Under the pieces are notes generated by a model that had not been told where the DNA came from, ran no database searches, and was given only the letters and a program-made list of their open reading frames with translations. This document shows, piece by piece, positions 31,343 to 48,982 of a stretch of DNA of 64,000 bases (its first letter is position 1; every line of letters starts with the position of its first letter). Where the stretch lies: contig JAFZYC010000050.1 of assembly GCA_017616435.1 (NCBI GenBank), positions 10,514 to 74,513 of the forward strand, read 5' to 3'. The DNA is from Clostridia bacterium. Its GTDB lineage: Bacteria > Bacillota > Clostridia > Christensenellales > CAG-138. Both the position numbers and the translations under genes were made by a program.

Positions 31343-31372
31343 TAAAAAAAGCGGCTGTGCCGCTTTGATTTT
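31343..31372. terminator. intrinsic terminator (udk / AI-2E junction)
   Basis: aaaaaaagcggc-tgt-gccgctttgatttt. Confidence 0.6.
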
Positions 31373-31381
31373 CCTGTTAAT

Positions 31382-32005
31382 TTATTTGCCTCTGCGCTCA
31401 GCCCAGAGTTCGACGGTGATGTAGGCGCTTATCGCGTCTATCGCGCGCTGGTTCTTCCCGCCGTGCATTACGGCGAAATCCGCCTTCCTTATGTATTTCG
31501 ATATGACCTCGTCATACCAGGGCTTAACCGTCTTGCAGTACTGCCGCGCGACGCCCTCTATCTCCCTGCCGCGCTCCTGCGTGTCGCGGAGCATGCGGCG
31601 CAGAAGGCACATATCGGGATCGACGTGCATATAGACCTTCAGGCTCATTCGGTCCATGAGCTCCCGGTTGTAGAAGACGTGTATGCCCTCCAGTATCACG
31701 ACGTCCGGCGGCTGTATGAGCTCGTCGCTGTCGGCCCTGACGTGATTGGCGTAGTCATAGCCCTTTTTCGTTATGGGCTGCCCCGCGGAGAGCAGGTTCA
31801 TATCCGCTATGAGCTCGTCGTAATCGAATATCTCGGGATCGTCGTAATCGGTCGTGACCCTGTCCTCGAAGGGCTTATAGCTCTGATCCTTGTAATAGCA
31901 GTCCTGCCCTATTATGACCGTGTCACAGTCGAGGGAGTTCTTTATCTCCTTCGCGAGGGTCGATTTGCCGCTGCCGGAGGCGCCGCAGATGCCAATTATG
32001 ATCAT
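31382..32005 (-). CDS. udk: uridine kinase
   Basis: P-loop ICGASGSGKSTLA. 207 aa with typical Udk motifs (DSLKVYMHVDPDMCLLRRMLRD-like). Confidence 0.95.
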   Translation of the reverse strand: MIIIGICGASGSGKSTLAKEIKNSLDCDTVIIGQDCYYKDQSYKPFEDRVTTDYDDPEIFDYDELIADMNLLSAGQPITKKGYDYANHVRADSDELIQPPDVVILEGIHVFYNRELMDRMSLKVYMHVDPDMCLLRRMLRDTQERGREIEGVARQYCKTVKPWYDEVISKYIRKADFAVMHGGKNQRAIDAISAYITVELWAERRGK

Positions 32006-32071
32006 ATCGATTCACCCCGCCCCTTGTAGGGCGCCCTTTCGTTTATCTGCTTATTTCAGACGGCCTTGCCG

Positions 32072-32578
32072 TTAATTCTCCGTTTTCCCGAGCCTGAGGA
32101 GCCTTTGCCTTATCCTGCCCGCGAAGTTCTGTATTTTGAACGCCGCATCGCGGTGGCGGTATGTTGCGACCATCCAAAGCGAATAGAGCCTGTACGTCAG
32201 CGACCTTACCGACCGCTTTTTGCCGCGGCTCTCGTACCCCGCGACGACGCCGATTATATCCCCGCGCGCGGCGGGCGGATCGCAGACCTTCCTTTTGTCT
32301 CCGCAGAAGATGTAGTCCTCCCCGTTCCTGGCGACGAGGCGGTGGAGCACATATCTCCTCTCCCCCTTGTACTCCGAAGCGAAAAGCGCGACCGCGCCTC
32401 TTCCGATCCGCTTGGGGGGCTTGATGAGGGTGACCGTATCGCCCTCCTCCCGGAGCATCGGGAGCATGCTCTCCCCCCGCGGGGAAAAGCTGACCGTTCC
32501 GCCCGCAGCGAGCTTTTCGGTCAAAAGCCCCTCCATTTCGGAGAGAGCGGTATGGATCTTTCTCGCAGATTCATCCAT
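32072..32578 (-). CDS. S24/S26-family serine peptidase-like protein, no signal peptide
   Basis: GESMLPML matches the Ser-nucleophile motif of LexA/signal-peptidase folds, with a downstream Lys candidate (CGDKRK). No N-terminal TM. Third gene of the coupled trio. Confidence 0.65.
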   Translation of the reverse strand: MDESARKIHTALSEMEGLLTEKLAAGGTVSFSPRGESMLPMLREEGDTVTLIKPPKRIGRGAVALFASEYKGERRYVLHRLVARNGEDYIFCGDKRKVCDPPAARGDIIGVVAGYESRGKKRSVRSLTYRLYSLWMVATYRHRDAAFKIQNFAGRIRQRLLRLGKTEN

Positions 32579-32590
32579 TCCGGGACGGGA

Positions 32591-32854
32591 TCAGGCCAGC
32601 AGGCCTTCCTTTTCGAGCTTGGCAAGGAACCTTTCGATGCCCGCCTTCGCCCTTTCCTCGTCGACGTCGTATTCCGAGAGCATGGCGGAAAGCAGCTCCT
32701 CCTTATCGGTCTCCTTTTCGAGGAGCTTCCAAAGGAACGCCGCGGTCTCGTTGAGCGTTATCATGCCGTTGAAATCAACGGACGCTTCGCCCGCGGGCAC
32801 GACTATCGTCGCGTCCGCGACCTTTCTCAGTACAAAACCTTCCCTGATCTTCAT
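32591..32854 (-). CDS. PqqD-family protein (RiPP recognition element-like)
   Basis: 87 aa. Pattern ...VVPAGEASVDFNGMITLNETAAFLWKLLEKE...ERFLAKLEKEGLL is typical of PqqD/RRE winged-helix proteins. ATGA overlap with the upstream gene. Confidence 0.75.
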   Translation of the reverse strand: MKIREGFVLRKVADATIVVPAGEASVDFNGMITLNETAAFLWKLLEKETDKEELLSAMLSEYDVDEERAKAGIERFLAKLEKEGLLA

Positions 32855-33555
32855 TGATGATACCTCTTGTTATTGATCATGACGCCGGAGCTGAGCCGGG
32901 CGGCAGATATGTCGTTTATGCAGCCCAAACGGTAGATGGGCACTGTTTCCATGAGCTTTTCCGCCGTATCGAGCAGCTCGTCCATGCGGGGCCTGCTTAT
33001 GTGGCGGACGGTCTGGGAGATGAGCTTTATCGCGGCTTCCGCAGCGGGCATGGGTTCTATGCGGTTCTCCTCCGCCCTTTCGATGAAGGCGATGGCGCCG
33101 ATCGGCGCGGATCCGTTGCGGCTCACGTCGTGCTTGCCGCTCCACGGGGTGCCGTAGGCGCGGGCGCCGTCCTCAAGGAGCCTTATCGCGGGCTTGTCGT
33201 CGTTAAGTATGAACGCGTCCGGGAAGAGCTCCAGCCAGTGGGAGGTGTGGGTCGATTTGCCTATCCCGCACGGGCCGGAAAAGAGATACGCCTTTCCTCC
33301 CGTTACCACCGCAGAGGAATGGAGCATCATGCCTCCGCGCTTGATGAGCTCGAAATAGAACTTGAAGCCGGAGAGCATGTACCTTCTGCCGTCGTCGGGG
33401 AGCTTCGAGCGGCCGTCCGCATGGCGGATCTCCTCCTCCGAAACGGATATCACAAACTCCGGCTCGCCCTCGAACACGCGGTATTTTTCCGCGCGGGAAC
33501 GGAACATTTCGCCGCAGTCGACTGCATCGAAAACTATATCAGCGACCCTGTACAA
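32851..33555 (-). CDS. HPr-kinase-C-terminal-like P-loop protein
   Basis: HSSAVVTGGKAYLFSGPCGIGKSTHT resembles the HprK C-domain Walker A region. AGGAGG sits 8 nt before the TTG at 33555. The ATG at 33714 has no RBS and overlaps the divergent promoter. Confidence 0.65.
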   Translation of the reverse strand: MYRVADIVFDAVDCGEMFRSRAEKYRVFEGEPEFVISVSEEEIRHADGRSKLPDDGRRYMLSGFKFYFELIKRGGMMLHSSAVVTGGKAYLFSGPCGIGKSTHTSHWLELFPDAFILNDDKPAIRLLEDGARAYGTPWSGKHDVSRNGSAPIGAIAFIERAEENRIEPMPAAEAAIKLISQTVRHISRPRMDELLDTAEKLMETVPIYRLGCINDISAARLSSGVMINNKRYHQ

Positions 33556-33586
33556 GCTCCGCCCCTCCTCTTTCAGACTACCTTGT

Positions 33587-33615
33587 ATTATATCATTTCC
33601 CTGCGCTCCGCACAA
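33587..33615 (-). promoter_or_regulatory. candidate promoter of the HprK-like/PqqD/peptidase operon
   Basis: On the minus strand, TTGTGC-N17-TATAAT lies about 30 nt upstream of the TTG start at 33555. Confidence 0.45.
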
Positions 33616-33673
33616 TAGTTTAATTTTTCCCGCCTTTCGCGGCCGAAAGATGCGATAAAAAGCCGCGGGGGAT

Positions 33674-33702
33674 TTGTAATCCGCTCTCGTATCTGGTATA
33701 AT
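33674..33702 (+). promoter_or_regulatory. sigma-A type promoter of lipoprotein gene 33729
   Basis: TTGTAA-N17-TATAAT with TG at -15/-14. Confidence 0.6.
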
Positions 33703-33728
33703 GATAAAAACCATTTCGGGAGGCCGCC

Positions 33729-34613
33729 TTGAAACAATCCTTGATCATCTGCCGCTCTCTGCTCGCGCTGCTCGCCGCCGCGGCTCTTTTCGCCGCGGGC
33801 TGCCGCGGGAGCTCCGGCCGCACAGACGATCCCGAGCACGGCAGTACCGCTGTGATCGACATACCCGCGGTCACCTCCCCCATAGAGACCGCGGTCACGC
33901 CCGAGCCGACTGCGGCGCCCACCGCGGAGCCCACATCCACGGAGGGAAGGATACTCGCCGGGGCGATATACCCGCTGAACGGCGGCGAGCCCGTAAAGAA
34001 AGGCTGGGAGGGCGAGGATATCGATATCGACGGCGACGGGATTCCTGAGGCGCTGAGGATATTGATGCTCGACGGCGGATACACATTCTGCATCGACGGC
34101 GAAGCGTTCCTGACCGACGGGAACATAATAAGGCTCGCCTCTCTCGACGGTAAGAACATAGTGTTCGTAACAGAGAGGCCGGGCGAGGACGGCTACAACA
34201 TATTCTATCCCGATCCCGACGGCAACCTTTACTGCAGGCTCTTCGCCATCGCACGCAGCGGGAACTCGGCGGATCTTGTCATCCGCTCCTCCTTCGAGGA
34301 ATACATCGAGCACGGCCTTGACATAATGCTGCACAATCCCATGCTCTACTCCGTTTCGGAGGGCGCGGTCCGCGGCATTTACCTCGACATGGACGGCGAC
34401 GGCGAGCGCGACGAGATAGTTTTCGACAGCGAGGTGCTCTCGATAAACGGCAGCGACAACGCGCAGATACTGCTTACCACCATGCCGCGCTTCATCTACG
34501 ATAAGGATCACGGGTGCATAGTGCTTTACGGCTCCGCGGGCGATTACGCGCTTCGCCTGAGGCTCGACCGCGGCGAGCTCGTATCGGATATCAGCTACGC
34601 GACGCTTTTGTAA
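33729..34613 (+). CDS. lipoprotein with Asp-rich Ca-binding-like (FG-GAP/VCBS-like) motifs, hypothetical
   Basis: TTG start with GGGAGG RBS and lipobox ALFAAGC. Motifs DIDIDGDGIPE and DMDGDGERDEIV. Has its own TTGTAA-N17-TATAAT promoter. Confidence 0.6.
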   Translation: MKQSLIICRSLLALLAAAALFAAGCRGSSGRTDDPEHGSTAVIDIPAVTSPIETAVTPEPTAAPTAEPTSTEGRILAGAIYPLNGGEPVKKGWEGEDIDIDGDGIPEALRILMLDGGYTFCIDGEAFLTDGNIIRLASLDGKNIVFVTERPGEDGYNIFYPDPDGNLYCRLFAIARSGNSADLVIRSSFEEYIEHGLDIMLHNPMLYSVSEGAVRGIYLDMDGDGERDEIVFDSEVLSINGSDNAQILLTTMPRFIYDKDHGCIVLYGSAGDYALRLRLDRGELVSDISYATLL

Positions 34614-46508: not shown

Positions 46509-47651
46509 ATGAAGAAACTTCTTGCATTGCTGCTCGCCGTGATCATGGTCGCGCTCTGCGTTCCCGTAACGGCTTTGGAAACGGAAGACTGGGATCCGAC
46601 CGGGCAGAACATATCCGCGGTCAACGCCGCATATTTCACCGCAGGCGGAAATCCCTCTTCGACCGATTTCTTCACTATGGATGACATCGCATCACACAGG
46701 CTGACCATCATCAACGTATGGTCGGACGGCTGCGGTCCCTGCCTCAACGAGATGCCCTATTTCCAGCAGGTGCATGAAAACTACGCCGATCAGGGCGTGC
46801 TCGTCGTCGGCGTCGGCTCTCTGTGGATAAGCGGCTCCTATTCCGGCGAGTGGAGCGTCCTTCAGAACAACGGCTATACCTACATGAACGTTATTCAGGA
46901 CAACGTTCTCAAATCCCTTTATTCCCATAACGGCTATCTGCCCCAGACATTCTTTGTCAACGATCAGGGCGTGGTCATCGACTTCATCGGCGGCGGCACC
47001 ACCTACAACACGCTCGTCAGCAAGATCAATTACTGGTTCAACGTTTTTGATTCCGATGAATACTACGACGTGACCTTTGCGATTCAGAAAAACTATCCTT
47101 CCGACTCCGAACCCATTGTATTCGAGACTCAGTCCGTGCACGTGGGCTACACTCCCGTCTATCCCGAGCCCCCCGAGGTCGAGGGCTATTCTTTCGACGG
47201 TTGGGATCCCGCGAGCCCGCCCGTTGTTACCAACGGCCCGGTCACGGTCTACGCGAAGTACAAAGTTCTTCCGCCCTTCCGCGTACGCTTCTACGACAGC
47301 ATAACGGGCGATCTGCTCCTGACCAAAAACGTCCTTTACGGCAACCCCGTTACGCCTCCCGAAGCTCCGGAACATGAGGGATATGTGTTCATGGGCTGGG
47401 ATCAGGATCTCTCCTTCGTCAGTCACGCCATGGACGTTTACACGATCTACAGTCCGGAAGGAGGCTTCCTGCCGGGCGACGCGGACGGCAACGGTGTGAT
47501 AACCTCCGCCGACGCGCTCGCCATACTGCGCTACACGATGGGCACGGGCACTATCCCGGAGTCTCTTCTCGCCTACTGCGATGTTGACTACAACGGCTCG
47601 GTAACATCCGCCGACGCGCTCGCGGTGCTGAGGATCGCCATGGGTCTATAA
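46509..47651 (+). CDS. secreted thioredoxin-fold (TlpA-like, CGPC) protein with 2 Listeria-Bacteroides repeats and C-terminal dockerin
   Basis: Signal peptide. VWSDGCGPCLNEMPYF motif. Two GY.F.GWD repeats. Dockerin duplicates DADGNGVITSADALAILR and DVDYNGSVTSADALAVLR. Confidence 0.8.
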   Translation: MKKLLALLLAVIMVALCVPVTALETEDWDPTGQNISAVNAAYFTAGGNPSSTDFFTMDDIASHRLTIINVWSDGCGPCLNEMPYFQQVHENYADQGVLVVGVGSLWISGSYSGEWSVLQNNGYTYMNVIQDNVLKSLYSHNGYLPQTFFVNDQGVVIDFIGGGTTYNTLVSKINYWFNVFDSDEYYDVTFAIQKNYPSDSEPIVFETQSVHVGYTPVYPEPPEVEGYSFDGWDPASPPVVTNGPVTVYAKYKVLPPFRVRFYDSITGDLLLTKNVLYGNPVTPPEAPEHEGYVFMGWDQDLSFVSHAMDVYTIYSPEGGFLPGDADGNGVITSADALAILRYTMGTGTIPESLLAYCDVDYNGSVTSADALAVLRIAMGL

Positions 47652-47857: not shown

Positions 47858-48982
47858 ATGAAAAAACTGCTTGCTCTTTTAATGGTCGCACTCATGCTCT
47901 CACTCTGTGCACCTTCTGGCGCGGTTCCTTCTGAAGAGCCGACGAGGGCGTTGCCTATCGGCTTGGACGTTTCCGCAGTACATGCCCCCTATCTAATTGC
48001 AGGAGGCAATCCATCTACGACCGATTTCCTTACATCAGATGATTTTGCATCACATAGTCTCATTGTTATTAATGCGTGGGATCATATGTGCGGACCATGC
48101 ACTAGCGAGATGCCGTATTTCCAGCAGATTCACGAGGAATATTCCAATCAAGGGGTACTCGTCGTTGGCGTCGCTACTACATGGATCGGCGGAACTTACC
48201 CCGGCGACTATAACTATTTTGTGAATCACAACTACAACTATATGCTCGTCAAGCTCGACTCCGTCATGGAAACTGCATTCTCATACCACAACTTCCTTCC
48301 CCAGACGATATTCGTGAGCCCGGACGGCGTTGTTGTTGATGAGATCGCAGGCAGCACCGATTACACAACTTTAAAGAACAAGGTTGAAGCCTGGCTCACT
48401 GCTTTTCAGCACGATTCTTATGAAGTCAACTTTGTTGACAGCGTTACAGGCGAAATATTCGAAACTCAGAATCTCGTTCCGGGTTCTGTTCCCGTCTATC
48501 CTGATGCCCCTGTGCATGAAGGTTATACCTTCAGCGGCTGGGATCCCGCGACTCCTCCCGTCATCATGGGACCGACGACAATCACAGCTAGATATACTGC
48601 TTTGATCTACCGTGTTCGTTTCATGGACAGCATTACCGGAGAACAGATATCAAGGGTTTTCGTTCATTACGGTGAGTCCGCAGAGGCTCCCGAACCCCCG
48701 GAGCACGATGGTTATGAATTCGTTTGTTGGGATCAGGACTTCTCTTTCGTCACGCAGTCTATGGACGTTTACACGATCTACAGTCCGGAAGGAGGTTTCC
48801 TGCCGGGCGACGCGGACGGCAACGGTGAGATAACCTCCGCAGACGCGCTCGCCATACTGCGCTACACGATGGGCACAGGCACTATCCCGGAGGCGCTTCT
48901 CCCATACTGCGATGTTGACGGCAACGGCTCGGTAACATCCGCCGACGCGCTCGCGGTGCTGAGGATCGCCATGGGTCTATAA
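47858..48982 (+). CDS. secreted thioredoxin-fold (CGPC) protein with 2 Listeria-Bacteroides repeats and C-terminal dockerin (paralogue)
   Basis: Same architecture as 46509-47651 (AWDHMCGPCTSEMPYF). The core is visibly AT-richer. The last ~220 nt are near-identical to copy 1. Confidence 0.8.
   Translation: MKKLLALLMVALMLSLCAPSGAVPSEEPTRALPIGLDVSAVHAPYLIAGGNPSTTDFLTSDDFASHSLIVINAWDHMCGPCTSEMPYFQQIHEEYSNQGVLVVGVATTWIGGTYPGDYNYFVNHNYNYMLVKLDSVMETAFSYHNFLPQTIFVSPDGVVVDEIAGSTDYTTLKNKVEAWLTAFQHDSYEVNFVDSVTGEIFETQNLVPGSVPVYPDAPVHEGYTFSGWDPATPPVIMGPTTITARYTALIYRVRFMDSITGEQISRVFVHYGESAEAPEPPEHDGYEFVCWDQDFSFVTQSMDVYTIYSPEGGFLPGDADGNGEITSADALAILRYTMGTGTIPEALLPYCDVDGNGSVTSADALAVLRIAMGL

Follow-up and report, generated by a model that had tools for sequence, protein, structure and literature searches.

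A ScmC-like kinase, a PqqD protein and a soluble S26-like protein in a Clostridia genome: a possible reduced peptide-maturation cassette

The phosphorylated lasso peptide clusters (paeninodin, pseudomycoidin and Bsf) contain genes for a precursor (A), a PqqD-type protein (B1), a B2 protease, a cyclase (C), an ABC exporter (D), an HPr-kinase-like enzyme (K) and a nucleotidyltransferase (N). The SynChlorMet (SCM) cassette is composed of ScmC, the PqqD-like ScmD and two radical SAM/SPASM proteins (TIGR04248–04251), and the HPr-rel-A system of the HprK-related kinase A (TIGR04352), PqqD_rel_X (TIGR04353) and kinase B (TIGR04355). PqqD-type recognition elements bind short N-terminal leaders. The locus described here combines an HPr-kinase-fold protein and a PqqD-family protein with a soluble S26-like protein. 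An earlier note on this DNA knew of no such pairing with an S24/S26 peptidase, and literature searches on the pairing likewise turned up no description; the system was nowhere described among the searches made on the pairing, on ScmC/SynChlorMet and on PF27840.

The window (the whole 64,000-nt stretch of DNA analysed) carries a minus-strand trio, present as the earlier note had outlined it. The ORFs encode a ScmC-family P-loop protein of the HPr-kinase/PEPCK fold (234 aa, 32851..33555), a PqqD-family protein (87 aa, 32591..32854) and a soluble S26-like protein of the signal-peptidase fold (168 aa, 32072..32578). Direct reading of the sequence gave the junctions that had been claimed: the P-loop stop and the PqqD start overlap as ATGA (32854–32851), 12 nt (32579–32590) separate the PqqD gene from the peptidase gene, and a gap of 66 nt (32006–32071) leads to udk (uridine kinase, 31382..32005, minus strand; NF004018, E = 4.8e-63), a housekeeping neighbour outside the system. 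The maximal ORF of the P-loop gene spans 32851–33714 on the minus strand. The true start of its product is most likely the TTG at 33555–33553, because this codon lies behind GAGGAGG (33570–33564) and the same start is found in relatives.

A promoter-like element was located upstream of the trio (33587..33615, minus strand), with a -35 hexamer TTGTGC (33615–33610), a 17-nt spacer and an extended -10 TG-n-TATAAT (33595–33587). Downstream of it come a ~25-nt leader and the GAGGAGG Shine–Dalgarno (SD) sequence. Comparison of the window with loci L001–L008 revealed that both hexamers, their spacing and their position are kept, so the idea that the trio has its own promoter-like element held up; a consensus scanner gave no flag because the -35 hexamer matches just 3 of 6 consensus positions. 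Scanning of the 66-nt gap detected no minus-strand terminator-like site between the peptidase gene and udk, as had been noted earlier, and udk is probably co-transcribed with the trio. An intrinsic terminator-like hairpin with a T-run after udk (31348..31366, minus strand; 8-bp stem with 5 GC pairs, then TTTTTATTT) would end the transcription unit. According to the ORF maps, the neighbours of the trio in the window include no polysaccharide gene. Just outside the window start, some 40 kb from the trio, there is a TldD/PmbA protease pair.

The model of the P-loop protein (AF2, pLDDT 93.9) gave 56 PDB matches at E <= 1e-3, all of which were ATP-dependent PEPCK or HPr kinase/phosphorylase, in line with the HprK-C-like fold proposed before. 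The ScmC-like profile searched against PDB sequences gave generic P-loop matches only, and the assignment was decided by the fold comparison and by hhalign against the lasso-precursor kinase BsfK (probability 98.5, E = 2.8e-15). The Walker A motif (G97-x-G-K-S-T-H103) and the acidic DD motif (N118-D-D-K-P122) align with GAGKST and ADD of BsfK. Among 44 sequences, H79, G97xGKSTH103, N118DDKP122 and G135TPxSGK141 are invariant. According to PMC10368454, BsfK has been validated as phosphorylating a lasso precursor, and the PqqD-type BsfB1 speeds that reaction. Based on the homology to BsfK, the window protein is probably an ATP-dependent kinase acting on a peptide Ser or Thr.

The precomputed Pfam family of the P-loop protein is PF27840 ('ScmC'), and its gene adjoins a PqqD homologue as in the SCM cassette. 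However, it scores 36.5 bits with the curated ScmC equivalog TIGR04249 (cut-off 125), TIGR04248 reaches 22 bits against 100, the window has no radical-SAM genes, and the S26-like partner falls outside the SCM definition. With the HPr-rel-A system the locus shares the pairing of an HPr-kinase-fold protein with a PqqD-family protein. In contrast to that system, there is no second kinase in the window, the peptidase is no part of HPr-rel-A, and the scores are below the cut-offs (TIGR04352, 14.1 bits vs. 200; TIGR04353, 25.1 vs. 35; TIGR04355, 12.2 vs. 200). The P-loop protein falls in Pfam ScmC and not in HprK-rel-A, the kinase family of the cassettes mentioned in the earlier note.

The PqqD fold claimed for the second gene was confirmed by PF05402 (70.8 bits, cut-off 23.4; E = 1.2e-19), with coverage of model positions 5–67 of 67. 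The nearest curated subfamilies are the lasso B1 chaperones (33 and 32 bits, under their cut-offs), and the protein aligns over its full length to BsfB1 (E = 2e-6). From these similarities, and from the leader-bearing ORFs that adjoin the cassette in 10 relatives, it is probably the recognition element for precursor leaders.

The S26-like protein searched alone gave no match in Pfam, NCBIfam, PADLOC or PDB sequences, and neither PF00717 nor PF10502 matched it at E <= 1. A homologue (P0190) exceeds the PF00717 threshold (27.2 vs. 23.3 bits), and other homologues score just under it; close relatives are named 'S24/S26 family peptidase' by NCBI. The top 26 Foldseek matches of the AF2 model (pLDDT 86) comprised SEC11C, SpsB, LexA, UmuD, SipA and lambda cI (E 4e-3 to 0.2, probability 0.9–1.0). 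The scores behind the assignment are modest (Foldseek E ~4e-3, profile E ~5e-4). In the family profile alignment, S37 falls on the catalytic Ser and G93-D94 on the GDN box, and H79 occupies the place of the His in SEC11 and of the Lys in SpsB. The nucleophile motif GxSMxP is present as G35-E-S37-M-L-P40, which is aligned with GESMDP in SpsB and SMEP in SEC11 and does not vary in the family; across 19 homologues, S37, H79 and D94 never change. At the position of the Lys general base of S24 and bacterial S26A peptidases there is His79 (LHRL vs. VKRV). Judged by these residues, the chemistry is that of ER/SipW-type S26 (S26B), not of LexA-type S24. Thus, of the LexA/signal-peptidase assignment made earlier, the fold and the Ser motif GESMLPML stood, while the general base is His and not the S24 Lys.

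With the ER and archaeal signal peptidases (MEROPS S26B; SEC11A/C, SipW of B. subtilis) the window protein shares the fold and a Ser-His(-Asp) arrangement that aligns with the SEC11 Ser/His and GDN box. Unlike them, it lacks a membrane anchor and would act in the cytoplasm: it has no signal peptide, and its top 19-residue hydropathy mean is 0.62, as the cytoplasmic location proposed earlier would require. No membrane segment was found in any of the three trio proteins (top Kyte–Doolittle 19-residue means 0.62–0.98). Further differences from S26B enzymes are an extra N-terminal helix, a long cationic amphipathic C-terminal helix (~127–165; muH 0.54–0.64, net charge +5/+6), and a PqqD partner, which in relatives is sometimes fused to it. 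By its modelled fold and active site, the S26-like protein is probably a leader peptidase. At E <= 1e-3 its family comprises 16,559 clusters (50% identity).

To describe the synteny, we used 80 related Clostridia loci, found with a subset of closer sequences; among the carriers are the cultivated Ruminococcoides intestinale (L021) and R. intestinihominis (L026). In 67 of the loci, the gene immediately upstream of the peptidase gene codes for a PqqD protein. A ScmC-like kinase gene occurs in 38/80 loci, always together with PqqD, and about half of the loci that have both PqqD and the peptidase lack it, from which it follows that phosphorylation is not obligatory. ABC exporters were found in 30/80 loci and NTP_transf_5 nucleotidyltransferases in 26/80. 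Eight of the nine closest relatives have the ABC exporter, and NTP_transf_5, radical-SAM and precursor ORFs occur in more distant ones; radical-SAM enzymes join some distant cassettes (one each in L075, L078 and L138, an additional likeness to the SCM cassette). Proteins fused from these parts are also encoded, namely PqqD::S26-like (P0224, P0280), S26-like::NTP_transf_5 (P0187) and ScmC-like::S26-like (P0194). The trio-only architecture is present in four loci besides the window. The gene order is kept in dozens of genomes, so the trio is more than a chance association. Rather than the isolated oddity it had seemed, the trio is, on gene content, a pared-down version of a cassette that is widespread among gut and rumen Clostridia.

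In 10 of the 80 loci, a 34–53-aa ORF with an SD sequence precedes the ScmC-like gene, in most cases immediately. These ORFs have a conserved leader (MKKxYxKPE-I/L-E-I/V-I/V…, with a YxxPx[IL] motif) and a variable acidic tail, for example MKKTYTKPEIEIIDF…DEDAPF in L068; L036 is another cassette with a linked precursor. In L075 and L078, the radical-SAM enzyme is located between the precursor-like ORF and the ScmC-like gene, and the peptide contains Cys. Leader conservation reaches approximately position 24–25, where small residues occur, which fits the preference of type I signal peptidases. Most loci hold a single precursor, and tandem precursor arrays were rejected on this ground; small ORFs overlapping the end of a glycyl-radical activase gene upstream of PqqD (L044, L066) were also set aside as probable frame artefacts. 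These leaders have the YxxPx[L/I] motif in common with lasso leaders (PMC10368454). One match of the leader scan was a genuine paeninodin-family precursor. Of 120 matches to the leader pattern, 90 had no cassette gene nearby, many of them in Prevotella/Bacteroidales beside surface-protein genes; the leader motif is therefore not exclusive to this machinery.

Leader HMMs applied to six-frame translations of the window, of L001–L009 and of the 10 kb past the window start found no precursor above chance, and in the nine closest relatives, too, no recognisable precursor occurs within 10 kb; precursors with the YxxPxL leader beside the enzymes are present in 10 more distant cassettes. When the window was searched by tblastn with the ABC exporter, NTP_transf_5 and the secreted protein encoded inside some cassettes, nothing significant emerged, and neither precursor, exporter nor nucleotidyltransferase was detected in the 64-kb window or in the 10 kb beyond its start. 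ORF maps, HMM and tblastn scans together bear out the absence from the window of a precursor, cyclase, B2 protease, radical-SAM enzyme, nucleotidyltransferase and exporter that had been claimed. Unlinked precursors are known from the cassette-bearing genomes JAZROO01 and JAFQHD01; in JAZROO01, cassette L047 has no adjacent precursor, and two precursor genes are situated on other contigs (L086, L156). The module of kinase, recognition element and leader peptidase suggested in the earlier note is backed by relatives, and for its other part, a substrate encoded elsewhere, JAZROO01 offers a precedent only.

Compared with the phosphorylated lasso clusters, the window has in common the PqqD-type protein and the HPr-kinase-fold enzyme homologous to BsfK, and its relatives add the ABC exporter, NTP_transf_5 and precursors with the lasso-like leader. 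Unlike in those clusters, the asparagine-synthetase-like cyclase and the transglutaminase-like B2 protease were not found among the window ORFs or the conserved genes of the 80 loci, and the S26-like Ser/His protein fills the place beside PqqD. The cassette cores are acidic and variable, without the conserved Gly1 / Asp-Glu8 ring pattern, and every lasso NCBIfam model stays under its cut-off for the window proteins.

Based on the above results, we suggest with moderate confidence that the trio is a reduced Clostridial peptide-maturation cassette that follows the logic of the phosphorylated lasso systems with no cyclase and with a different leader protease. The following pathway may be proposed. 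The PqqD protein would bind small acidic precursors at their conserved N-terminal leader and present them to the ScmC-family enzyme, by which a core Ser or Thr is probably phosphorylated. It would also present the precursor to the soluble S26-like Ser/His peptidase, which would take off the leader; the cut probably follows small residues near positions 22–24 (…I/L-T/A-A/T-S, behind the Ser). In fuller cassettes, the product would be secreted by the ABC exporter and could be further modified by NTP_transf_5 or radical-SAM enzymes. In the genome of the window, the precursor and any exporter would have to lie elsewhere.

The same gaps could mean that the trio is an evolutionary remnant which has lost its exporter and any linked precursor, has no substrate and is decaying. 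The ABC gene that stands between the peptidase gene and udk in 8/9 close relatives is absent in the window and in L005, about 74 kb were searched with no precursor found, and dN/dS of the trio genes against L001 (0.17–0.30) is 4–6 times higher than that of udk. No deletion scar of the ABC gene is recognisable at the peptidase–udk junction of the window. However, dN/dS values of this size still indicate purifying selection, every ORF is intact, and the Ser/His/Asp residues and the Walker A and NDD motifs are kept, as are the promoter and the SD sequence. In addition, the trio-only layout recurs in the four other loci, and close relatives that keep the exporter are also devoid of a local precursor. 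On balance, decay of the trio appears improbable.

Somewhat less credible still is that the S26-like protein has a role other than leader cleavage and that the leader is removed otherwise. It might then work without catalysis as a scaffold or chaperone, as SipA does in pilus assembly; it might be a LexA-like switch that cleaves itself; or it might confer immunity, with its cationic tail binding the acidic product. SipA, LexA and UmuD are indeed among the structural matches, with the modest scores given above, the strongly cationic C-terminal helix would suit the binding of an acidic peptide, and the TldD/PmbA pair can also be cited for this possibility. But the catalytic Ser, His and Asp are invariant in divergent homologues, unlike in SipA-type pseudo-enzymes; the protein lacks a DNA-binding domain and any internal segment of the Ala-Gly type for self-cleavage; and the PqqD fusions mirror the fused B1–B2 leader peptidases of lasso systems.

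There is also a slim chance that the substrate is a larger secreted or lipid-anchored protein, either the lipoprotein encoded by the divergently transcribed gene at 33729–34613, which the earlier note had named as a candidate, or a relative of the low-complexity secreted proteins of other cassettes. Ten related loci encode such a protein of 170–240 aa (signal anchor or lipobox, acidic linker and conserved C-terminal domain) inside or beside the cassette, the commonest place being between the PqqD and peptidase genes, and in L075 the C-terminus of the membrane protein (GEVDTPIG) mimics the CDLDTPIG of the adjacent precursor. The window lipoprotein adjoins the trio in 5 of the 9 close relatives. 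Nevertheless, it is absent in the other four and in all distant cassettes, has no family match in Pfam or NCBIfam, shows no similarity to the cassette-internal proteins and contains no leader-like motif, while its Sec/lipobox signal would carry it away from three cytoplasmic enzymes; the short N-terminal leaders bound by PqqD-type elements also speak against a substrate of this kind. As a substrate, this lipoprotein was a weak candidate and was rejected.

A role of the cassette in cell-envelope polysaccharide biosynthesis or regulation instead of peptide natural products can be given hardly any credence: Lachnospiraceae and Eubacterium cassettes directly follow CpsB-Wzz-CpsD, the L042 cassette precedes CpsD and CpsB and that of L081 a CapD-like Polysacc_synt_2 gene, and NTP_transf_5 is a family of uncharacterised function, but the genes after the cassette in those loci are unrelated (lipoprotein, barstar-like protein, GlmM), other lineages have GroEL, ribosomal proteins, udk or MnmA as flanks, no neighbour in the window is a polysaccharide gene, and the precursor-like ORFs, like the radical-SAM partners, suggest that peptides are the products.

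Returning to the reduced peptide-maturation cassette, we tentatively propose a broader interpretation. The PqqD and S26-like proteins may together act as a new and very widespread leader peptidase of two parts, dependent on the recognition element and functionally analogous to lasso B1/B2. The ribosomal peptides that it defines in gut and rumen Clostridia may be a class not described before: linear and acidic, often phosphorylated and sometimes carrying nucleotidyl or thioether modifications, with precursors that are often dispersed over the genome and, in the case of the window, wholly in trans. If this is true, an abundant gut and rumen family of ~16,500 clusters (50% identity), currently annotated just as 'hypothetical' or 'S24/S26 family peptidase', would be a missing type of leader protease for ribosomal peptide natural products, and its substrates would be small acidic peptides with lasso-like leaders, themselves a large family. 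Mining tools that look for a core enzyme beside a precursor would miss such systems, as many copies, that of the window included, have neither nearby. Furthermore, the lasso accessory set (B1, kinase, nucleotidyltransferase and exporter) would have been re-used in these Clostridia without the cyclase.

The three cassette genes follow one another on the minus strand, and a direct reading of the sequence confirmed the trio itself and all the coordinates and spacings reported for it in the earlier note. The ScmC-like P-loop gene has a maximal start at 33714 and a stop at 32851; the start found in relatives is TTG (33555-33553), behind GAGGAGG (33570-33564), which gives 234 aa. Its TGA overlaps the ATG of the PqqD gene (ATGA, 32854-32851; ORF 32854-32591, 87 aa), and 12 bases separate the latter from the S26-like peptidase gene (32578-32072, 168 aa). 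udk (32005-31382, minus strand) follows 66 bases 3′ of the peptidase gene; no terminator-like site was found in this gap, and a clean terminator-like hairpin with a T-run (31366-31348, minus strand) lies 3′ of udk. The promoter-like element 5′ of the ScmC-like gene (TTGTGC, 17 nt, TG-n-TATAAT; 33615-33587, minus strand) is identical base for base across eight related loci, while the adjoining intergenic DNA is not conserved. Back to back with it stands the near-consensus promoter (TTGTAA, 17 nt, TG-n-TATAAT; 33674-33702, plus strand) of a divergent lipoprotein gene (33729-34613, plus strand), whose product has the lipobox LFAAGC, a T/P/E-rich linker, DxDGDG-type motifs and no family match. Elsewhere in the window, two adjoining paralogous secreted proteins (46509-47651 and 47858-48982, plus strand) have near-identical signal peptides (MKKLLALL…) and very unlike third-position GC (0.73 vs. 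0.55).

The second protein is a PqqD domain (PF05402, E = 1.2e-19); its nearest curated subfamilies are lasso B1 chaperones, with scores under their cut-offs. For the first, NCBIfam showed only a weak match to ScmC (36.5 bits; the cut-off is 125), with faint similarity to HprK-related kinases A and B. Its AF2 model (44-sequence alignment, pLDDT 93.9) had 56 significant PDB matches, every one an ATP-dependent PEP carboxykinase or HPr kinase/phosphorylase, which have one common fold. Precomputed Pfam annotation places the protein's 1,960 homologues (E ≤ 1e-3) in PF27840 (ScmC). BsfK, the kinase of a phosphorylated lasso-peptide system, was translated from the gene sequence printed in PMC10368454 and aligned with the ScmC-like family profile across the Walker A and DD core (hhalign probability 98.5, E = 2.8e-15). 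According to that paper, BsfK phosphorylates Ser3 of a lasso precursor, and the PqqD-type BsfB1 speeds the reaction.

A back-translated pattern search gave 80 related loci, all in Clostridia and mostly from gut and rumen MAGs; Ruminococcoides intestinale and R. intestinihominis are cultured carriers. Partners lying no more than 5 kb from the peptidase gene were counted with HMMs, and in parallel with tblastn. By HMM scan, PqqD was present at 67 of the 80 loci, the ScmC-like protein at 38 (always with PqqD), an ABC exporter at 30 and NTP_transf_5 at 26, the common order being [NTP_transf_5]–ScmC-like–PqqD–S26-like–ABC–[NTP_transf_5]. The flanks vary by lineage (GroEL, ribosomal proteins, MnmA, udk, or CpsB-Wzz-CpsD), which shows that the cassette travels as one block. 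In the nine closest relatives the surroundings match those of the window; in eight of them a gene for an ABC exporter (~570 aa, ABC_membrane + ABC_tran) separates the peptidase gene from udk, and it is missing from the window and from the relative L005. The label "orphan" fits the window copy but not the family, in which relatives carry exporters, NTP_transf_5 and candidate precursors.

Ten cassettes contain an extra protein of 170-240 aa, encoded mostly between the PqqD and peptidase genes (L036:9303-10001, L068:9285-9965, L047:8844-9491, L062:2223-2747, L055:2248-2961, L067:658-1344). Its N-terminus bears a membrane anchor or lipobox; a long acidic linker rich in S/T/P/E follows, and at the C-terminus stands a conserved domain of ~55 aa (TYEEYxAM…QQAxFESF…WYNxAKxxYExE…GxIDIGDIIGG), also seen in L054, L056, L065 and L076. 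No Pfam match was found; immunity, receptor or second substrate are candidate roles. Three Lachnospiraceae cassettes encode a conserved 57-aa helical protein (…LLNEIxNLKKQLEHExxRHxHWKGLAMxFHDSLWEVMGGK…) 3′ of the ABC exporter (L017:12418-12591, L038:12403-12576, L027:12331-12504).

When the DNA flanking the cassettes was screened for short ORFs preceded by a Shine-Dalgarno sequence, one family emerged in ten loci, upstream of the ScmC-like gene and mostly directly so. These candidate precursors (34-53 aa) start with MKK-x-[YF]-x-K-P-E-[IA]-E-[IV]-[IV]-x-F, and their C-terminal halves vary and are acidic; in a six-frame HMM search the ten cassette-linked ORFs scored 6e-9 or better, and the next match had E = 4. 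L075 and L078 encode, between the candidate precursor ORF and the ScmC-like gene, a radical-SAM enzyme that bears Cys clusters at its C-terminus, and the precursor-like peptide of these loci contains Cys. L075 also encodes a 128-aa membrane-anchored acidic protein (L075:2048-2434) ending in GEVDTPIG, which nearly copies CDLDTPIG, the C-terminus of the precursor-like peptide just upstream (L075:1821-1922).

A DNA pattern search found at least 120 further sites for MKKxYxKPExE. Among the matches listed, nearly all are ORFs of 28-83 aa with this layout, conserved to about position 24-25 ([IL]21, [TAML]22, [ATSG]23, S/G/A/T24) and variable and D/G/E-rich beyond; 30 of 120 sites have at least one cassette gene within reach, one match is a true paeninodin-family precursor by NCBIfam, and the others matched no NCBIfam or Pfam model. 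Y-x-x-P-x-[IL] is the lasso precursor leader motif (PMC10368454). In genome JAZROO01 a cassette (L047) has no precursor beside it, and two precursors are encoded on other contigs (L086, L156); JAFQHD01 has one linked and one unlinked copy. Among the matches listed, such small ORFs are common in Bacteroidales/Prevotella (L085, L087, L089, L092, L095-L098, L108, L110, L120, L127, L134 and others), where the sequence often goes on with …LLAGS before an acidic stretch. Their neighbours are large surface proteins (Big_2, DUF6359, CHB_HEX_C_1) or an outer-membrane efflux protein; ScmC, PqqD and S26-like genes are absent from the surrounding DNA examined.

Neither the 64-kb window nor the 10 kb past its start (L205) yielded a leader-family ORF, and none turned up in the nine closest relatives up to 10 kb from the cassette; the window contains no cassette-type ABC exporter or NTP_transf_5. 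The trio could accordingly be a remnant without substrate. We consider this unlikely: the genes look functional, with every motif intact, a conserved promoter and dN/dS values against the relative L001 of 0.30, 0.17 and 0.27 for the three genes, next to 0.05 for udk. A TldD/PmbA protease pair lies ~6-9 kb past the window start (L205:1096-3716), adjoining an HTH regulator, a LytTR regulator and a dockerin-bearing S8 peptidase; TldD/E elsewhere processes some ribosomal peptides.

The third protein alone had no match in Pfam, NCBIfam, PADLOC or PDB sequences. Its AF2 model (pLDDT 86) matched human SEC11C, S. aureus SpsB, LexA, UmuD, SipA and lambda cI, and little else. In a profile search of PDB sequences, GES37MLP aligned with the nucleophile motif of SpsB and SEC11, LH79RL with SEC11 VHRV (catalytic His) and SpsB VKRV (catalytic Lys), and G93D94 with the GDN box. 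Based on this alignment and the fold matches, the protein has a signal-peptidase fold with a Ser/His/Asp arrangement as in ER/archaeal/SipW-type enzymes, not the LexA Ser/Lys dyad. G35, S37, M38, P40, D47, L78, H79, R80, G93, D94 and G119 are invariant in 19 homologues; a non-catalytic role seems quite unlikely, given that the Ser, His and Asp at the catalytic positions are among them. No hydrophobic segment was found in this soluble offshoot of the S26 fold, and its last ~20 residues fold into a strongly amphipathic helix with a net charge of +5 to +6. At NCBI some close relatives bear the name "S24/S26 family peptidase", and one homologue passed the Pfam S24 threshold. A profile search over 1.8 billion cluster representatives gave 16,559 relatives at E ≤ 1e-3 (5,626 at E ≤ 1e-10), mostly of 145-170 aa. 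Among the longer ones, fusions tie the peptidase directly to PqqD (P0224, P0280), NTP_transf_5 (P0187) and the ScmC-like protein (P0194, hhalign probability 100).

That the substrate is a larger protein is very unlikely, and the divergent lipoprotein, proposed earlier as one such substrate, is a weak idea. Directly before the cassette in loci of Lachnospiraceae and Eubacterium stand CpsB-Wzz-CpsD (tyrosine phosphatase, chain-length regulator, tyrosine kinase); capsule-gene neighbours occur in L015, L017, L025, L027, L029, L031, L032, L038, L041, L042 and L081, and in L081 the cassette comes before a CapD-like polysaccharide gene. The adjacency may mean that cassette and capsule loci are functionally linked, or simply that synteny is kept within the lineage; a cassette devoted to polysaccharide synthesis is highly improbable with flanks so varied.

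The most economical reading is an RRE-guided kinase with a leader peptidase; its steps are inferred, and what the analysis shows is the folds, residues, synteny, fusions, candidate precursors and selection. PqqD would dock a YxxPx[IL]-type leader, and the ScmC-like enzyme, like its homologue BsfK, would phosphorylate the docked peptide. In the role that the B2 protease has in lasso systems, the S26-like protein would cut off the leader, whose residues at positions 22-24 are small and would fit the pocket of a type I signal peptidase. Where an exporter is present, it would secrete the product, which would be linear, because the cassette has no cyclase, unless a radical-SAM partner cross-links it. 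In the genome of the window, substrate as well as exporter would come from elsewhere. The earlier guess of a kinase, RRE and leader-type peptidase is largely borne out by the comparative evidence.

Among known systems, the cassette works most like the accessory half (B1, K, N, D) of phosphorylated lasso clusters, but the window has no cyclase and no B2, and its HMM scores are under cut-off. The ScmC + PqqD pair is common to the SynChlorMet cassette (Haft), but the window proteins score under the equivalog cut-offs and the two radical-SAM proteins of SynChlorMet are absent; nor is the trio a member of the HPr-rel-A system. In literature outside subscription journals, no description of a PqqD/ScmC pairing with an S26-like peptidase was found. 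Recognition-element-dependent peptide maturation is known; in that literature the putative leader-peptidase type is unreported. The cassette merits attention, as the family is very large, its hosts live in gut and rumen, and the hypothesis is cheap to test.
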